Shown: positions 1 through 6,926 of the stretch, piece after piece
Position numbering within the stretch: position 1 is the first letter of the stretch
How the letters are laid out: each line of letters starts with the position of its first letter
DNA from: a virus
Taxonomy: Duplodnaviria; Heunggongvirae; Uroviricota; Caudoviricetes
IMG/VR virus record: IMGVR_UViG_2648501390_000002
Location: 1-6,926 of that record
Length of the DNA: 6,926 bases
Direction: 5' to 3' (one strand)
Translations under genes and position numbers: made by a program
The notes under the pieces: generated by a model
The model's input: only the letters and a program-made list of their open reading frames with translations
Database searches by the model: none
Told to the model about the DNA's origin: nothing

Positions 1-129
1 GAGCAAGTAATAGAAATAAAGAAATCAAAGGGAGTTAATCAAAGAGAGCTTGCTAAAAAATACTGTGTCAGTCAGACGGTGATTCACAATATCCAGTCTG
101 GTAAATCGTGGAGGCATGTTAATGGCTGA
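1..129 (+). CDS. 3' end of an upstream gene (5' end outside window); the last 42 aa contain a helix-turn-helix-like segment
   Basis: Frame 1 is open from base 1 to TGA at 127-129 and translates [42 protein letters not shown]. The segment [21 protein letters not shown] has the spacing of a classic HTH (Gly turn, hydrophobic recognition helix). Its stop overlaps the start of the next gene (ATG 122), implying translational coupling. Only 42 aa are visible, so the fold assignment is tentative. Confidence 0.45.
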
Positions 130-1075
130 TTCGAATCTCAATGAGCCAGTAATCATTCAGGCTACGCGGCTCGATACATCAATCCTTCCACGCAATATCT
201 TCTCGCAGTCGTATCTGCTTTACGTTATCGCACAGGGTACTGATGTTGGTAACGTGGCTAACAAAGCCAACGAGGCCGGACAGGGCGCTTATGATGCACA
301 GGTCAGGAACGATGAGCAGGATGTCACCCTTGCAGACCATGAATCCAGAATTGAAGCAGCTGAAGCAACTCTCATCAATCATGAGCATAGAATTGCAGCA
401 GCGGAAAGCACTCTTGCAGATCATGAAACAAGGATTACGGCTGCTGAAACAGAGCTGGCTGATCACGAGACGAGAATTGCTGCCAATGAATCTGAGTTAG
501 CAAACCATGATGCGCGCATAACTCAGAATACAACCGATATCGACGCACTTGATACCAGGCTCACAGCGGCAGAGGGAAGTATTTCGACGCTACAAAGCAC
601 AGTTGGTGATCACTCAACAAGAATATCTGCGCTTGAGTATGCCACCACGCGCAAGAAATCAGAGGTTGTTTACTCAGGGGTATCTGTAACCATCCCGACA
701 GCGCCGACTAACCTTGTTAGCCTGCTGAAAACGCTCACGCCGTCATCCGGAACGTTGGCACCATTCTTCGACACCGTTAACAACAAGATGGTTGTGTTCA
801 ACGAGAACAAAACCCTGTTCTTCAAGCTGTCGATTGTCGGGACGTGGCCCAGTGGAACCGCCAACAGGTCAATGCAGCTAACCTTTTCCGGCTCTGTTCC
901 TGACACACTGGTAAGCAGTCGCAACTCGGCGACAACGACCGATAACATCCTGTTAGCTACGTTCTTCAGCGTGGATAAAGACGGCTTTCTTGCCACAAAT
1001 GGCAGCACGTTAACCATTCAGTCGAATGGTGCGTCGTTTACTGCCACAACCATCAAGATAATCGCGGAGCAGTAA
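122..1075 (+). CDS. Tail needle / cell-envelope-penetrating fiber (P22 gp26-like) with an extra C-terminal knob-like domain
   Basis: ORF-track ORF 116-1075. I prefer ATG 122 because GGAGG at 110-114 sits 7 nt upstream of it but only 1 nt upstream of ATG 116. The N-terminus [43 protein letters not shown] closely matches my recollection of the P22 gp26 N-terminus (from memory, not searched). The centre is five 14-aa coiled-coil repeats (ADHExRIxAAExxL). The protein is 317 aa versus about 233 aa for P22 gp26, and the extra about 150 C-terminal residues are beta-rich (S/T/N/G), as in knob-bearing needles of Sf6-type phages. Confidence 0.85.
332..541 (+). repeat. Five imperfect 42-bp tandem repeats inside the needle gene, encoding 14-residue coiled-coil units
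   Basis: Units at 332-373, 374-415, 416-457, 458-499 and a degenerate one at 500-541 encode [14 protein letters not shown] / [14 protein letters not shown] / [14 protein letters not shown] / [14 protein letters not shown] / [14 protein letters not shown]. Read directly from the sequence. Confidence 0.8.
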
Positions 1076-1530
1076 TGATTCAGTTCAAACCAACGCGAAA
1101 CATCGACCTGATAGAAGCCGTGGGAAATCACCCCGACATTATCACCGGGAGCAACAACGGTGATGGATACGACTACAAGCCTGAATGCCGTTACTTCGAG
1201 GTGAACGTGCACGGTCAGTTTGGCGGCATTGTTTACTATCAGGAGATTCAGCCGCTGACATTCGATTGCCACGCCATGTACCTGCCAGAGGTTCGTGGAT
1301 TCAGCAAGGAAATCGGGCTGGCGTTCTGGCGATACATTCTGACTAACACCACTGTTCAGTGTGTCACATCGTTCGCTGCACGCAAATTCCGCCACGGGCA
1401 GATGTACTGCGCAATGATTGGCCTTAAGCGTGTCGGAACCATCAAGAAATACTTTAAAGGCGTGGATGACGTGACTTTTTACAGCGCCACACGCGAAGAA
1501 CTAATCGACTTCCTGAATCACGGGAGATAG
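1075..1530 (+). CDS. Gene 14-like protein (position and size match P22 gene 14, associated with ejection-protein function/assembly)
   Basis: 151-aa ORF. Its ATG at 1075-1077 shares a base with the TAA stop of the needle gene (TAATG), and GGAG lies 5 nt upstream. The assignment rests on synteny (needle-14-7-20-16 order) and size; I do not recognise the sequence itself. Confidence 0.6.
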   Translation: MIQFKPTRNIDLIEAVGNHPDIITGSNNGDGYDYKPECRYFEVNVHGQFGGIVYYQEIQPLTFDCHAMYLPEVRGFSKEIGLAFWRYILTNTTVQCVTSFAARKFRHGQMYCAMIGLKRVGTIKKYFKGVDDVTFYSATREELIDFLNHGR

Positions 1531-1532
1531 CC

Positions 1533-2228
1533 ATGTTATATGCATTTAAGCTGGGCAGAAAACTGCGCGGCGAGGAACCTTATTGCCCTGAAAAAGGCGG
1601 GAAAGGTGGCTCCGATAAAAGTGCAAAGTATGCCGCAGAAGCTCAGAAGTATGCCGCAGACCTGCAAAATCAGCAGTTCAACACCATCATGAATAACCTG
1701 AAGCCGTTTACTCCTCTGGCTGAGAAGTATGTCGGTAGCCTCGAGAACTTATCGTCTCTGGAGGGGCAAGGTCAGGCACTTAACCAGTATTACAACTCTC
1801 AGCAGTATAAAGACCTTGCAGGTCAGGCTCGCTATCAGAGTCTGGCGGCAGCGGAAGCAACAGGTGGATTGGGTTCCACCTCAACCAGTAATCAGTTAGC
1901 AACAATCGCACCAACGCTTGGTCAGCAATGGCTATCTGGACAAATGAACAACTACCAGAATCTGGCAAATATTGGTCTTGGCGCGCTTCAGGGACAGGCA
2001 AACGCCGGGCAGACATATGCCAACAACATGAGCCAGATTTCACAGCAAAGCGCAGCACTGGCGGCGGCAAACGCTAACAGACCTTCCGGCCTTCAATCTG
2101 CAATAGGCGGGGCTGCCTCTGGAGCAATTGCTGGAGCACAGCTTGGCAGCATTGTTCCCGGTATTGGTACTGGTATTGGTGCCGCTGTTGGCGGCGGTCT
2201 TGGTCTTCTTGGTTCACTACTTTATTAA
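1533..2228 (+). CDS. Ejection (E) protein, P22 gp7-like
   Basis: 231 aa (P22 gp7 is about 229 aa, from memory). It starts 2 nt after the gene 14 stop. It has a basic N-terminal segment (MLYAFKLGRKLRGEEP...), a Gln/Ala/Asn-rich middle, and a Gly/Ala/Ile-rich hydrophobic C-terminus (GGAASGAIAGAQLGSIVPGIGTGIGAAVGGGLGLLGSLLY) suited to membrane insertion. Confidence 0.7.
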   Translation: MLYAFKLGRKLRGEEPYCPEKGGKGGSDKSAKYAAEAQKYAADLQNQQFNTIMNNLKPFTPLAEKYVGSLENLSSLEGQGQALNQYYNSQQYKDLAGQARYQSLAAAEATGGLGSTSTSNQLATIAPTLGQQWLSGQMNNYQNLANIGLGALQGQANAGQTYANNMSQISQQSAALAAANANRPSGLQSAIGGAASGAIAGAQLGSIVPGIGTGIGAAVGGGLGLLGSLLY

Positions 2229-2238
2229 GGGGTAATCA

Positions 2239-3582
2239 ATGGCTACGTGGCAACAGGGTATTAATTCTGGTGGTTTTCTGGCTGGCATCGGTGCGCAAAA
2301 TGAGAATGCGCCAAAGGCAAGCGACATTAACGCAACGCTTGGTCTGATCCGCGAAAACAATGAACTGGCTCGCTCAGGTGCAAATAACGTTGGTCTGACC
2401 GCGTTACGTGGTCTGGCTGGAGTTGCTGATATTTATAAGCAGCAGCAACAGCAGGAACGTAAAGCGGCATTCCAGAAAGGTTATGCAGATGCTTATGCGT
2501 CCGGCGACAGGGAGCAGATGCGTAATCTTATTACAGCATTCCCTGAAGAGTTTGAGGAAGTCCGTAAAGGCATGGGGTATGTCGATGATGCCCAGCGGGA
2601 TGATTTTGGCAATCTGGCGCTCAAGGCTCAGGTAGCTTCGTCGCTTGGTCCGGGCGCATTTGGCAGGTTCATGATGGATAACGAAAAGGAGATGCGTCGT
2701 TTAGGTATCCCTCCAGAAACTATTGCGGAAATGCAGGTTAATGACCCGCAGGGCTTCCAGCACTTCACAGGTAATCTGGCACTATTTTCTCTCGGTCATG
2801 AGAAGTATTTCGATATCAAAGATCGAATGGAGGGGCGTCGACTTGAGCAAGGGCGATTGGATGAAAGCATCCGTCAGGCTGACATGGAGAATGCGAGAGG
2901 ATGGGCAAATATCCAAAATGCTCAACTAGACAGGGCTCAGCGGGCACAAATGCACTCAGATGAGATGGGATTGAAGCTAATGGAGCTGGGGCAAAAAGGT
3001 AAGCCGTCAGCAGACTTAATTAAGGGATTAAATTCTGACATTACCAATTTTGGCAAAAATTATAACTCTGTCAGAGCGGCGGCAAACTCTCTGCAAGCCC
3101 TTAGCAAGGTAAATACTGGCGCTGCCCAACTTGGGATTATCTTTAATTACATGAAGTCTCTCGACCCTCAGTCAGTTGTTCGCGAAGGTGAACAGGTTCA
3201 GGTCATGCGCTCTGATGGCATATGGGGGCAGATAAAAGGATATGTAGACCAGCTTAATGCAGGGAATGGCTTGTCACAGGAAGCGAGGGATAACATTGTC
3301 AACGCAGCAAAAATTAACGCCAACGCTATGGGGCAGCAGTTTAACCAGCAGGTAGACGAATATCTGGATACGTATGGAGATACTATTCCTCAGGGGCTGA
3401 AAAAAAGTTTAGGGAGAAGGAAGGCCAAGCTATTTGACGATGTCCCAGCGCAGCCTACACCACAAGGTGGTAATGGGCAGACAAAAGCTGCGCCAAGTGG
3501 GATATCAGAAGGCGCGACGGCAACGAACCCTAAAACTGGTCAGAAACTCATTTATAGGAACGGACAATGGCAACCGATGTAG
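2239..3582 (+). CDS. Ejection (E) protein, P22 gp20-like
   Basis: 447 aa (P22 gp20 is about 471 aa, from memory). AAGGGG lies upstream of ATG 2239. It is third in the conserved 7-20-16 order, Gln-rich and predicted largely helical, and overlaps the next gene by 16 nt. Confidence 0.7.
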   Translation: MATWQQGINSGGFLAGIGAQNENAPKASDINATLGLIRENNELARSGANNVGLTALRGLAGVADIYKQQQQQERKAAFQKGYADAYASGDREQMRNLITAFPEEFEEVRKGMGYVDDAQRDDFGNLALKAQVASSLGPGAFGRFMMDNEKEMRRLGIPPETIAEMQVNDPQGFQHFTGNLALFSLGHEKYFDIKDRMEGRRLEQGRLDESIRQADMENARGWANIQNAQLDRAQRAQMHSDEMGLKLMELGQKGKPSADLIKGLNSDITNFGKNYNSVRAAANSLQALSKVNTGAAQLGIIFNYMKSLDPQSVVREGEQVQVMRSDGIWGQIKGYVDQLNAGNGLSQEARDNIVNAAKINANAMGQQFNQQVDEYLDTYGDTIPQGLKKSLGRRKAKLFDDVPAQPTPQGGNGQTKAAPSGISEGATATNPKTGQKLIYRNGQWQPM

Positions 3583-5690
3583 GTTTACCCGAAGGCTTTG
3601 TTCTCGATAATCAGCCTGATAACTCACAGCTTCCTGATGGCTTTGTGCTTGATTCCCAACCAGAACAGCAGCAATCTCCTTTGGTTTCACCAGAGGAAAA
3701 TTCCAGACAGGAAAATGTTGTTAATAATGCTAACGGTTTCGACCGTTTTATGTATGGCGTTCTCAGTGGATTGATGGATGTTGGTAAAGGTGTTGGCCTG
3801 TTTCAGGACATGACACCAGAAGAGCAAGCCGCAATTCAGTCTCTACAGCAGAAGTTAGCGGCAAAACCATCAACCGCACAAGATGTTGGTGAGTTCGTTG
3901 GACAAGCAGCACCATTTGTTAGTGGTGGTGGGATTATTTCTCAGGTTCCGAAAGGGGCGGCAAGGCTGGCTGCCGCCGCAGGGCTTGGTGCTGGAGAAGG
4001 GGCTATTGTAGCCAATGGAACAAATAGCGATGTTGCTTCCGGCGCTGCTATTGGCGCTGTGGCTGGCCCTGTAGCCGAGATTGTTGGTCCAGCGCTTGGG
4101 AAGATTGCAGGAAAAATTAAAAATAGTGCCGGAGATATTTATCGCTCATCCGTAGGGATGGGTAGTAAATCATCTAAAGCAACGTTAAAGAAAGCTGCTG
4201 GCGCAATGGATAATAAATTTATTGGTGGGCAACGAGCTATTCAAGATTTCGCCGATGAAGTTAATCCTGATTTTAACGCGATAAATGCTATTCGTGAGCT
4301 AGAACTGGAAAATTATGCCACTCCAGGCATGATCTCTAATAATCCTGCTGTCAGGGCTCTTGATAATGCAGTGGCAAGTCTCCCTGGAACAGAGATTAGT
4401 GAGGCGCATAAGCGTTTTATTACTGAATTAGGAAGAAAAGCTGATGAAATGATAACTTCATTTGGGGGAAACCTTGATAAGCAACTGGTTTCTGACAGGC
4501 TTGCAGATAATTTTGATAAAACCATTTCATCATTACAAAATCAGTCAGATAACATCTACAACAAAATTGCCGAAAAGGTACCTGTAAGAGACCGGATTGA
4601 GGCAACTAATACATTGAATTTTTTAGAGGATTTTGCTGATGACATAGGTGGAATTGATGAATTATCTCCAATAATGAAGCGGACATTGAACCGACTTGAT
4701 CCAAACACCTTGCCAACGTATGGGCGTTTAGATCTCGCTAGAAAGCAGGTTGGACAAGCTATTGGCAAAGGCTCTGGCCCATTCAAGGATGAAGAAACAG
4801 GTGTTCTTAAAAAGTTATATGCAGCCATAACAGATGACCAACAGGCTGTCGCAGAAAAATATGGCGCAGGGGAATTATGGACGCTTGGTAAGGAGTTGGT
4901 AAAAAAACGAAAATCCATTGAAGATGATGCTGTAACCGTCTTGGGTAGAAAACTTCAGCAATCAGCAATTCCAAAAGTTGAAAGTGCCGTTGTTAATATG
5001 GCAAAAGGAAACGGTGGTGACTTTAGGCAATTAATGAAGTCAATTCCAAAGGATATGCGGCAGGAAGTTGCGCTCACCTCAATGAATAAAGCATTTACCA
5101 GCTATGCCAAATCACCTGGTCAGCAATTAGGAGTTGATGGATTTGTAAAATGGTATAACGGAATGTCACGCAATGGGGCCAATATGAAGGCTCTCCGTGA
5201 TGCTATTGGCACAGATGCATCAAAGCGCCTTGATACGATTTATCAAGCAGCTAAGGCTATGAATAGACTCAATACTGGTAAGCAGTATGCTAGTAGCCTT
5301 GTGGATCAGCAAGTTAATAACTTTCTGAAAGAAAAGGGTAGTCTCGCAAAAATTTATGGAATAGCCTCAAAAGCTGCTGCGGCGGAAGGTATTACAAGCT
5401 TATCTGGTCTTCCTGGTGTAGGTGCAACAGGGGTGATAACGTCAGCATTGATGTCAGGGAAAACAAGCAGGATAAAGGCTGCTGATGCCCTACTGTCTTC
5501 TCCTGAGTTTAAATCAATGCTATTTCGCCTGCAAAACGCACCAGTAGACAGAGCAGAAGTGAGACGCGTAATAGAAAGGAAACTGATGCAATCTGGGGCA
5601 TTTAAGAGATGGGAGAAAACCTTATCAACAGATGAAGCAAAAACCATTGCCCGCACGGGGATTATTACATGGCTCGCTAGTGACAGTTAG
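3567..5690 (+). CDS. Ejection (E) protein, P22 gp16-like, with an N-terminal tandem peptide repeat and a compositionally distinct distal part
   Basis: 707 aa (P22 gp16 is about 609 aa, from memory). AGGAA lies 7 nt upstream of ATG 3567, and the start overlaps the gp20-like stop. It is the last gene of the co-directional block and has a Gly/Ala-rich segment (aa about 110-180). Confidence 0.7.
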   Translation: MATDVGLPEGFVLDNQPDNSQLPDGFVLDSQPEQQQSPLVSPEENSRQENVVNNANGFDRFMYGVLSGLMDVGKGVGLFQDMTPEEQAAIQSLQQKLAAKPSTAQDVGEFVGQAAPFVSGGGIISQVPKGAARLAAAAGLGAGEGAIVANGTNSDVASGAAIGAVAGPVAEIVGPALGKIAGKIKNSAGDIYRSSVGMGSKSSKATLKKAAGAMDNKFIGGQRAIQDFADEVNPDFNAINAIRELELENYATPGMISNNPAVRALDNAVASLPGTEISEAHKRFITELGRKADEMITSFGGNLDKQLVSDRLADNFDKTISSLQNQSDNIYNKIAEKVPVRDRIEATNTLNFLEDFADDIGGIDELSPIMKRTLNRLDPNTLPTYGRLDLARKQVGQAIGKGSGPFKDEETGVLKKLYAAITDDQQAVAEKYGAGELWTLGKELVKKRKSIEDDAVTVLGRKLQQSAIPKVESAVVNMAKGNGGDFRQLMKSIPKDMRQEVALTSMNKAFTSYAKSPGQQLGVDGFVKWYNGMSRNGANMKALRDAIGTDASKRLDTIYQAAKAMNRLNTGKQYASSLVDQQVNNFLKEKGSLAKIYGIASKAAAAEGITSLSGLPGVGATGVITSALMSGKTSRIKAADALLSSPEFKSMLFRLQNAPVDRAEVRRVIERKLMQSGAFKRWEKTLSTDEAKTIARTGIITWLASDS
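3585..3674 (+). repeat. Two 45-bp tandem repeats encoding LPEGFVLDNQPDNSQ / LPDGFVLDSQPEQQQ at the N-terminus of the gp16-like protein
   Basis: Direct read: 3585-3629 and 3630-3674 encode near-identical 15-aa units with the core LP[ED]GFVLD[NS]QP. Confidence 0.75.
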
Positions 5691-5914
5691 TCAACTTTGG
5701 TTATTTTGCCTTCTTTTTCTTGATGAACTTTGCATCCATCATCTTTTGATAGCCAAACTAAAAACTTTAAAACCTTAAACACAAGTAAGGCTACTGCAAT
5801 GAAAGCACCAATCGCAATTATTGCTAGCGAAATTATTTGCATTGGTGCTTTTAATGCAGGGAAAATAGTGTAAATGATCGCGAAAACAGTAATTATGAGG
5901 AACCATCGCTTCAC
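5687..5914 (-). CDS. Small inner-membrane protein (75 aa, two predicted TM helices, charged C-terminal tail); candidate superinfection-exclusion or membrane-acting accessory protein
   Basis: The ORF track gives 5687-5989 (100 aa from ATG 5989), but that ATG has no Shine-Dalgarno sequence. An in-frame GTG at 5914-5912 is preceded by a perfect AAGGAGG (complement of 5920-5926) with a 5-nt spacer. The product is VKRWFLIITVFAIIYTIFPALKAPMQIISLAIIAIGAFIAVALLVFKVLKFLVWLSKDDGCKVHQEKEGKITKVD: two hydrophobic stretches of about 18-23 aa, then a Lys/Asp/Glu-rich tail. Its stop (complement of 5687-5689) overlaps the gene 16 stop (5688-5690). Confidence 0.55.
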   Translation of the reverse strand: MKRWFLIITVFAIIYTIFPALKAPMQIISLAIIAIGAFIAVALLVFKVLKFLVWLSKDDGCKVHQEKEGKITKVD

Positions 5915-5978
5915 ACCAACCTCCTTAGTTTTGTGCAGGATACCAGATGATAATGTGTAGTTGGAGTAGCGCGGTTGT

Positions 5979-6070
5979 AATGCAAGCATTTTGTTTTGGT
6001 TTTATGCTTGCTTGTATGTGTGTACAGTGCATATAATGCAAGCATACATCACAATAAAGGTGCTTGCATT
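5979..6070. promoter_or_regulatory. Divergent control region with four copies of a near-palindromic operator-like motif (consensus AATGCWWGCATT)
   Basis: O1 at 5979-5990 is AATGCAAGCATT (perfect 5-bp inverted arms around AA). O2 at 6003-6014 is TATGCTTGCTTG (core ATGCTTGC). O3 at 6035-6046 is AATGCAAGCATA. O4 at 6059-6070 is GGTGCTTGCATT and abuts ATG 6071. Centre-to-centre spacings are about 23, 33 and 24 bp, with alternating AA/TT centres. Confidence 0.5.
6008..6037 (+). promoter_or_regulatory. Putative sigma70-type promoter for the rightward gene (-35 TTGCTT, 18-bp spacer, -10 TATAAT)
   Basis: TTGCTT at 6008-6013 and a consensus TATAAT at 6032-6037. O2 overlaps the -35 and O3 overlaps the -10/+1 region. 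AAAGG at 6055-6059 is a plausible RBS for ATG 6071. Not experimentally supported. Confidence 0.4.
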
Positions 6071-6926
6071 ATGACTGAAAAGAAAAGTGGCGAAGGGAAA
6101 GCTAAGGGCGGTATCGCTCGCGCAAAGTCGCTGACTAAAGAGCAGCGTTCTGAAATAGCAAAGAAAGCAGCGGCTGCAAGATGGAAGGATAAACCATTAA
6201 TTGCTACGCATAAGGGATCGTTCCAGCATGAATTCGGGATTGATGTTGAGTGCTATGTGTTAAATGATGATAACAAAACTGCCGTTATTAGCCAGAGAGG
6301 CATGGGAGAAGCGATTGGTCTTGGCGAAGGTGGCAGCAGGTTGCCAAAGTTTATTCAGGGGAAAACTATTTCTCAGTATATCGGGCATGAATTAAGGGCA
6401 AAACTTGAAAATCCTCTTATTTTTCAATACAAACAGGCGGGCACGAACACTCCAGCTAATCCTGTAATACATGGCTACGATGTAACAATATTAATTGATT
6501 TATGTCGAGCAATCTCTAATGCTAAAGCTGAAGGTAAGTTGCTTTCCAGTCAGGAAGGGATTGCTAAGCAAGCCAGAATCATTATTGATGCATCAGCCAA
6601 GGCGGGCATTCAGGGGCTTGTTTATGCTTTGGCAGGGTATGACAGAACAAAAGAAGAGGTAATTCAAGCATATAAGCGATATGTTGCTGAAGAGGCTCGT
6701 GAGTATGAAAGAGAGTTCACCCCTGAACTTTATGAGCATTGGTATCGTCTGTATGGTATAGACAAACCAGTTAGAGGGCGACCATGGGCGTTTAAATATC
6801 TTACGATAGATCACATTTATTACCCATTAGCCAGAAGTGAAGGAAAGGTATTTAATTTAGCAAAAACGTCAAAAGAAGAAAAAGGCAGCAAAAACGATAA
6901 AATACACCAGTTTTTATCAGAGGTTG
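6071..6926 (+). CDS. 5' part of a gene for a phage regulatory-type protein (P63C-domain / antirepressor-like family; 3' end outside window)
   Basis: Frame 2 is open from ATG 6071 to the window end (285 codons). It is missing from the ORF track, presumably because it has no stop in the window. The N-terminus MTEKKSGEGKAKGGIARAKSLTKEQRSEIAKKAAAARWKDK carries the basic motif GGxARAxxLTxEQRxEIAxKAAxARW, which I associate from memory with P63C-domain proteins that accompany Bro-N/KilA-N/Ant-type antirepressor domains. It is preceded by the operator/promoter region. Confidence 0.7.
   Translation, partial: MTEKKSGEGKAKGGIARAKSLTKEQRSEIAKKAAAARWKDKPLIATHKGSFQHEFGIDVECYVLNDDNKTAVISQRGMGEAIGLGEGGSRLPKFIQGKTISQYIGHELRAKLENPLIFQYKQAGTNTPANPVIHGYDVTILIDLCRAISNAKAEGKLLSSQEGIAKQARIIIDASAKAGIQGLVYALAGYDRTKEEVIQAYKRYVAEEAREYEREFTPELYEHWYRLYGIDKPVRGRPWAFKYLTIDHIYYPLARSEGKVFNLAKTSKEEKGSKNDKIHQFLSEV

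Follow-up and report, generated by a model that had tools for sequence, protein, structure and literature searches.

A 75-residue membrane protein in the sieA position of P22-like phages: a leader-defined cassette and candidate superinfection excluder

SieA of phage P22 is an inner-membrane injection blocker, and the mutations that escape it fall in the C-terminal regions of gp16 and gp20 (PMC10883804). A single chromosomal copy of sieA with only 85 base pairs (bp) of upstream sequence confers exclusion, and it was noted as a puzzle that widely differing SieA proteins act against phages whose gp16 and gp20 also differ widely (Leavitt et al. 2024, PMC10883804). The region between genes 16 and 9 has been described as the "ant moron", with ten types in sixteen genomes and many unrelated genes thought to be non-identical in function (PMC2629481). 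Here we describe the gene of a 75-amino-acid (aa) protein with two predicted transmembrane (TM) helices, located in this region in a 6,926-nucleotide (nt) stretch of viral DNA (positions 1 to 6,926 of IMG/VR virus record IMGVR_UViG_2648501390_000002; the whole stretch is referred to as the window). The window corresponds to the end of the late operon at which a P22-like (Lederbergvirus-type) phage or prophage encodes its ejection proteins, and the 75-aa gene is an allelic alternative to sieA, with the same slot, leader, Shine-Dalgarno (SD) sequence and GTG start codon.

T4 Imm and HK97 gp15, which act at DNA entry as is proposed here for the 75-aa protein, are likewise small phage membrane proteins with no enzymatic domain, and HK97 gp15 is also a moron within a virion-gene cluster. 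Neither has a sequence relationship to the 75-aa protein, for which Pfam returned nothing at E<=0.1. They differ further in that Imm is made by a lytic phage, while gp15 acts on a long-tailed phage with a tape-measure protein and PtsG and not on a P22-type ejection conduit. In phage BTP1 (Owen et al. 2020, PMC7067206), the transcript STnc6030 is expressed in the lysogen and lies antisense to gp16 at its 3' end. STnc6030 alone excludes BTP1 and not P22, prophage induction is unaffected, and the single-nucleotide polymorphisms (SNPs) that escape it are all non-synonymous and located at the end of gp16 (PMC7067206). Because STnc6030 contains no open reading frame (ORF) longer than 60 aa, Owen et al. 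read it as a non-coding antisense RNA (PMC7067206).

The features of the window on which the comparison with these systems depends are:

5687..5914, minus strand: coding sequence of the 75-aa two-TM protein (GTG 5914..5912, stop TAA 5689..5687), with the sequence MKRWFLIITVFAIIYTIFPALKAPMQIISLAIIAIGAFIAVALLVFKVLKFLVWLSKDDGCKVHQEKEGKITKVD
5912..5945, minus strand: 34-nt leader TGGTATCCTGCACAAAACTAAGGAGGTTGGTGTG, which includes the GTG and contains the SD, 100% identical to the leader and start codon of P22 sieA
5952..5947, minus strand: candidate -10 hexamer TATCAT, for which P22 has TTTCAT where the annotated PsieA ends (3'), without a good -35
5852..5902, minus strand: TM1, residues 5-21, from hydropathy; the most variable part of the protein, with replacements that are all hydrophobic
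5843..5860, minus strand: conserved turn P19-A-L-K-A-P24 (PALKAP), in which P19 and L21 are invariant even in a 28%-identical homologue
5750..5836, minus strand: TM2, residues 27 to ~46, followed by the amphipathic, lysine-bearing FKVLKFLVWL to residue 55, from hydropathy
5690..5749, minus strand: charged C-terminal tail, residues 56-75, with the motif CKV[HY]QE..G[KR].T[KR][VI][DE]
3567-5690, plus strand: gp16-type ejection protein of 707 aa, convergent on the 75-aa gene with a 4-nt overlap

The relationship to sieA is carried by the leader. In P22 the identical 34 nt begin at the edge of the annotated PsieA and run up to the start codon of sieA, and the flanks on either side of this stretch are unrelated between the window and P22. 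In four related prophages (L007, L053, L079 and L109), the 400 nt upstream of the 75-aa gene are at least 97% identical to the sequence upstream of P22 sieA, including PsieA and the mnt terminator, and sieA in these prophages is replaced by the 75-aa gene exactly at the start codon. The earlier note on this DNA, made from its letters alone, had placed the gene in a position equivalent to that of sieA, and the shared leader and upstream regions bear this out. Directly upstream of the leader, T(A/T)TCAT is present in every upstream variant, and TATCAT is probably the -10 element of the 75-aa gene, paired with a poor -35, which would place the start of transcription at about 5941-5939.

Scanning IMG/VR for the last 22 nt of the leader, with translation from the GTG, recovered 123 complete ORFs in 12 unrelated families (~120 viral-contig loci, L005-L124). 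Along with SieA type A (164 aa) and the 75-aa family, the leader is borne by a 62-aa two-TM family, a 116-aa four-TM family, several families of 99-149 aa whose N-terminus is an anchor or a signal peptide, a 68-aa YobH-like family and one soluble 140-aa family. An N-terminal hydrophobic segment occurs in 11 of the 12, and SieA is the only leader-borne family of known function. No description of the shared leader and start-codon junction was found in the literature searched. The 75-aa family, already catalogued as hypothetical, is newly placed here as a replacement for sieA that is not homologous to it and belongs to a cassette system defined by the leader. Beyond what the earlier note had seen, the gene is one of at least 12 interchangeable cassettes and is tightly linked to one gp16 lineage. 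As a side observation, one locus (L075) holds two copies of the leader (2351-2372 and 4116-4137) in a single ant moron with a P63C gene between them, and these copies drive different cassettes, one a signal-peptide protein of 129 aa and the other of the 149-aa type.

The C-terminal type of gp16 and the type of cassette go together. Where gp16 ends in ...RTGIITWL(A/V)SDS, the 75-aa gene is next to it with the same overlap in all 20 of 20 cases. This overlap leaves zero intergenic space, the stop codon of the 75-aa gene (TAA, 5689..5687) overlapping that of gp16 (TAG, 5688..5690) within the 4 nt at 5687-5690. In six loci (L155-L160), gp16 is 92-98% identical to that of the window over the matched part of the last 200 residues but has ~11 extra residues at its tail (...TTASD(G)DQ(P)KM(Q)), and other cassettes, the 140-aa soluble or the 68-aa YobH-like type, follow after a ~60-nt spacer. 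Because near-identical gp16 proteins with this extra tail carry other cassettes, a recombination junction can be placed in the last gp16 codons (compare window positions 5655-5690). Diverged homologues of the 75-aa protein sit beside diverged gp16 proteins of the same lineage, one pair with gp16 at 78% and the small protein at 56% identity, and a second with the C-terminal region of gp16 at 72% and the small protein at 28%; thus the two have been co-inherited for a long time, with the small protein the faster evolving. This exclusive and ancient linkage suggests specificity for a type of ejection protein, without amounting to proof. The gp16-type protein is the linked partner of the 75-aa protein and the candidate for its class of target. 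Every family member whose surroundings were read is in a P22-like prophage or phage. An exhaustive hidden Markov model (HMM) search through 1.8 billion representative proteins turned up, apart from the family itself and the 56%-identical homologue (P0022), no genuine relative, and a degenerate DNA pattern for the tail motif returned only contigs already known. Two further matches from the HMM search (P0023 and P0024) are long repetitive proteins and were rejected as low-complexity artefacts.

The earlier note had given the coordinates of the gene as 5687-5989. This span holds as the maximal minus-strand ORF (5989-5687), 100 aa from the ATG at 5989, whereas the 75-aa form itself is 5687-5914, and comparisons of leaders and homologues lend no support to the longer form. 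The AAGGAGG-N5-GTG initiation site that the note had pointed to is present, with the SD at 5926..5920, a 5-nt gap and the GTG at 5914..5912, and the window contains a single SD-N5-RTG, where shuffled sequences predict 0.01. The GTG start is supported since the leader is 100% identical to that of P22 sieA through the GTG and other alleles start at the same codon. Start annotation in PGAP/RefSeq is inconsistent, 75 aa or 100 aa depending on the genome: the gene is annotated with 75 aa at 7001-7228 of L133 (WP_052935169.1) and with 100 aa, from the upstream ATG, at 6088-6390 of L134 (WP_244489063.1), and in phage E212 it is present without annotation.

The minus-strand ORF 5914->5687 is a genuine protein-coding moron gene, as follows from the unique SD-N5-GTG site, three initiation regions leading to the same codon, a low ratio of non-synonymous to synonymous polymorphism (pN/pS) and homologues that keep its motifs. 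The protein matches phrog_7294 (function not known) over its full length (E = 1.1e-48, with residues 1-75 aligned to all 75 positions of the profile), and its close homologues, 84-99% identical and from E. coli and Salmonella, are every one named "hypothetical". Two alleles exist, the GTG-leader allele of the window and a commoner ATG allele (P0008), which was found in 1108 blocks of a public-assembly index with no disruption seen. In the ATG allele the same codon is reached by GGGAGG-N5-ATG, and the gene before it ends only 28 nt away. The 56%-identical homologue (L130) has the same position and a diverged version of the GTG leader, and the 28%-identical homologue (L163, 3119-3337) has the same position and a third leader, AAGAGG-N5-ATG. 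Both keep the basic N-terminus, the FPxL turn and the tail motif, and their helices exchange only hydrophobic residues. Synonymous and non-synonymous changes number 8 each in the most divergent of the close pairs (pN/pS = 0.29), with the replacements in TM1 hydrophobic-for-hydrophobic. Among the loci examined there are no disrupted copies, and the gene is present without disruption in 34 of 5426 complete E. coli genomes (~0.6%), strain 55989 included. It is variably present among syntenic relatives, lies on the minus strand inside the late operon, presumably has its own promoter, and is atypical in GC content (34.6% vs 43.8% for gp16), the properties by which a moron is recognized.

Expression in the lysogen is proposed from the arrangement of the ATG allele, which in E. 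coli and Salmonella prophages (L125-L129, 4875-6228) is the last gene of an apparent operon headed by an mnt-like gene. In this operon an Arc-family repressor resembling Mnt (82 aa) is followed by proteins of 92 and 186 aa and then by the 75-aa gene, and in the annotation of P22 Mnt is a repressor for maintenance of lysogeny. The 186-aa protein has a coiled coil and a C-terminal TM anchor and might partner the 75-aa protein.

Hydropathy and coordinates confirm two hydrophobic helices and a charged tail, encoded on the opposite strand directly after the gp16-like gene, as had been noticed from the sequence. The protein begins with MKRW, the second hydrophobic stretch (27-55) contains K47 and K50 near its end, and the tail holds 5 K and 5 D/E in 20 residues. 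Basic residues number 2 at the N-terminus, 1 in the loop and at least 3 after TM2. By the positive-inside rule, both ends and the tail would be cytoplasmic, with a periplasmic loop of ~6 residues. AlphaFold2 (18-sequence alignment) returned one continuous helix over residues 2-72, with a predicted local distance difference test score (pLDDT) of 77 and a predicted template modelling score (pTM) of 0.37; we judge this model to be uninformative on a hairpin or on partners, as is typical of a shallow alignment and a small membrane protein.

The resemblance to SieA is one of place and arrangement. Both genes occupy the slot between genes 16 and 9, convergent on gene 16, with the 34-nt leader, SD and GTG in common, and some prophages with the 75-aa gene also have the SieA promoter region. 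Both proteins are hydrophobic and presumably reside in the inner membrane, carry their best-conserved element at the C-terminus on the predicted cytoplasmic side, and are not known from outside P22-like prophages and phages. They differ in that SieA proteins have 162-200 aa and three (type A) or four (types B and C) TM helices whereas the 75-aa protein has two, and that sieA is separated from gp16 by a 22-nt gap whereas the 75-aa gene overlaps it. The same window method that identified the two hydrophobic segments of the 75-aa protein found three in P22 SieA. The earlier note's remark that the protein is much shorter than SieA is accurate (75 aa vs 164 aa for type A), as is its failure to recognise a family, phrog_7294 being the only match.

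At the level of sequence the 75-aa protein does not appear to be a SieA homologue. P22 SieA matches phrog_7745 at 3.7e-108, while the 75-aa protein has no match to it at E<=0.1, and BLASTP of the 75-aa protein against P22 SieA, a direct comparison limited to type A, gave a best segment of E = 3.5. A regular expression for the SieA motif FxRYPxEAxxFNK finds FGRYPGEANGFNK in P22 SieA and nothing in the 75-aa protein. A Pfam-A scan of the 75-aa protein found 0 families at E<=0.1, and hence no match to the Pfam models for Imm superinfection immunity, YebO, holins or small toxins. Neither PADLOC nor NCBIfam yielded a meaningful match, and a profile search of the PDB returned just a designed protein (E = 0.043) and no relative.

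We favor, with about even confidence, the reading that the 75-aa protein is a prophage-expressed inner-membrane excluder of superinfecting P22-like phages that would act at DNA delivery. This reading is drawn from the exact replacement of sieA, the co-orientation with an mnt homologue (co-transcribed in one allele), a slot filled nearly entirely by envelope proteins, the restriction of the family to P22-like phages and prophages, and the experiments on SieA and BTP1 at this position. A weak promoter of its own (-10 TATCAT) would drive the gene in the lysogen, against the direction of the late operon, and the protein would form a hairpin in the inner membrane, its two ends cytoplasmic. Contacts would be made by the membrane helices and by the conserved tail on the cytoplasmic side (CKV[HY]QE...GK.TK), and the mechanism proposed for SieA would be carried out by an unrelated and much smaller protein.

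Several points weigh against exclusion. The function proposed for the 75-aa gene is read from position, membrane architecture and the P22-like restriction, and the protein has neither similarity to SieA nor a match to a defence model. The candidate promoter is weak by consensus, and a consensus promoter and terminator scan reported no minus-strand promoter, TATCAT among those not reported. The predicted periplasmic exposure is ~6 residues, and any contact with the gp20 tube would therefore be within or below the membrane. Ten of the eleven other cassettes are uncharacterized, so that the function of the slot is extrapolated from SieA and from the single BTP1 transcript, whose link to the slot is one of position. 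Additionally, the 4-nt overlap, with no room for recombination, could alone explain the linkage to gp16.

The alternative that survives best, and which we still consider unlikely, is that the protein is a lysogenic-conversion membrane factor that alters host envelope physiology (stress tolerance, transport or the modulation of a host membrane protein) to the advantage of the lysogen and is unrelated to phage entry. The unrelated genes of the ant moron, thought to be functionally non-identical (PMC2629481), fit such a role, as do the YobH-like sister cassette, which belongs to a host-type small protein family, the lack of a defence-family match, and an architecture that is common among small bacterial membrane regulators. 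Freer movement would be expected of a host-directed factor, however, than is seen for a family found only in P22-like prophages and phages and fixed to one gp16 lineage, and the exact replacement of sieA is likewise unfavorable to it.

It is improbable that the protein is a membrane-permeabilizing effector, either class II holin-like or a small toxin, that acts in abortive infection or as a toxin by depolarizing the inner membrane when triggered. Two TM helices with N-in/C-in orientation and a charged C-terminal tail are the layout of a class II holin or pinholin, and the 75-aa protein, predicted to have this layout and preceded by a strong SD, resembles proteins such as S21 in its ~70-aa size as well. 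Conversely, the gene lies away from the lysis cassette, between gp16 and the P63C gene and on the strand opposite to the late operon, and the protein matches no holin or toxin family in Pfam or PHROG. No antitoxin, antisense regulator or sensor partner is evident. Its place in the mnt operon in one allele implies that constitutive expression is tolerated by lysogens, and the undisrupted copies in complete E. coli genomes (34/5426) also speak against a toxic product. With respect to type I toxins (Hok, TisB, Ldr), there is no Pfam or NCBIfam toxin match, and an E-value scan of 5400-6926 against Rfam gave only sub-threshold plant and animal microRNA models over the AT-rich palindromic intergenic region, which were taken as noise.

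We likewise give little credence to the possibility that the transcript and not the protein is active, with the mRNA running antisense into the 3' end of gp16 and silencing incoming late transcripts as was proposed for STnc6030. The stop codons overlap, and beyond them are only weak terminator-like sites, one at 5483-5466 inside gp16, the only terminator-like site in the consensus scan, and a 3-bp hairpin with a U-run at ~5660-5639. Self-specific exclusion by the BTP1 transcript at the same position is a further point in its favor (Owen et al. 2020, PMC7067206). Conservation, however, is at the level of protein, with homologues of 28-56% identity that keep the helices, turn and tail while the DNA diverges, and pN/pS is below 1. 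RNA folding of the antisense stretch downstream of the stop codon is ordinary (z = -0.76). In BTP1 itself the escape SNPs are all non-synonymous and induction is unaffected, which a block at entry fits at least equally well. It is very improbable that the ORF is no functional gene and arose by chance, or is decaying, opposite the last part of the late-operon gene, for although the ORF is short, AT-rich (34.6% GC), lacking a characterized homologue and unannotated in some phage records, it has the unique strong SD, three independent start regions, motif-bearing homologues at 28-56% identity, a pN/pS of 0.29 and zero disrupted copies among the loci examined.

Like the 75-aa gene, the BTP1 transcript comes from the strand opposite the late operon and is directed into gp16 at its 3' end. 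Inside the STnc6030 region of BTP1 (L180, LT714109.2), an unannotated hydrophobic ORF of 23 codons, MERDLLNFVFLIFGLVVGKLLFA, is located at 14082..14011 on the minus strand, with a GGAGGG-N4-ATG start and a stop that overlaps gp16 by 12 nt, as the stop of the 75-aa gene also overlaps gp16. It differs in that it encodes a single 23-aa helix, unrelated in sequence to the 75-aa protein, and in its gp16 type. The ORF is conserved in g341c, HF4s and ST64T (L181-L183), and between BTP1 and ST64T there are seven synonymous codon changes and four mostly conservative replacements, with unrelated sequence upstream. Exclusion by BTP1 might thus be mediated by a membrane mini-peptide, which we offer as a lead and not as a result. 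The BTP1 gene st313-td was considered as a cassette in the slot and rejected; it is bstA, located beside cI.

A broader proposal, tentative and in our estimate somewhat doubtful, is that the spot convergent on gp16 in P22-like phages is a dedicated, fast-exchanging exclusion slot. A portable leader (-10, SD and GTG) would drive interchangeable small envelope proteins, from 23 aa (BTP1, ST64T) through the 75-aa hairpin to the 164-aa SieA, each jamming the gp16/gp20 conduit of particular types of ejection protein. The 75-aa protein would then be a minimal injection blocker, matched to its gp16 lineage and acting through the conserved cytoplasmic tail, and the exclusion of BTP1 would be mediated by a peptide.

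Should the proposed exclusion prove true, the 75-aa protein would offer a much simpler tool than SieA for probing the inner-membrane step of the conduit. The conserved leader is a ready means to list a dozen candidate exclusion cassettes, comparable to the defence hotspots of other temperate phages. And should the function have nothing to do with phage entry, the locus would remain a clear instance of cassette exchange at a start-codon junction.

The window is most closely related to prophages of E. coli and to the phages EC.P3 and E212. The remaining genes, all on the plus strand, are:

116-1075, plus strand: tail needle with an Sf6-type knob (gp26 homologue)
1075-1530, plus strand: gp14-like DUF2824 protein
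1533-2228, plus strand: gp7 homologue
2239-3582, plus strand: gp20 homologue
6071-6926, plus strand, continuing past the end of the window: P63C-domain protein gene, divergent from the 75-aa gene

The P63C gene is intact up to the end of the window. Its pairing with the 75-aa gene is also present in E. coli ATCC 43886, and in phage 611R6 the P63C gene is paired with a different cassette in place of the 75-aa gene, annotated as a coding sequence of 134 aa and measuring 109 aa from the leader GTG. The divergent intergenic region of the window (5978-6072) has four half-sites, ATGCAAGCA(T), that form two palindromes: ATAATGCAAGCA-N16-TGCTTGCATTAT at 6033-6072, which overlaps the ATG of the P63C gene, and GCAAGCAT-N14-ATGCTTGC at 5982-6011. 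These palindromes resemble the operators of a repressor and could also regulate the 75-aa gene.

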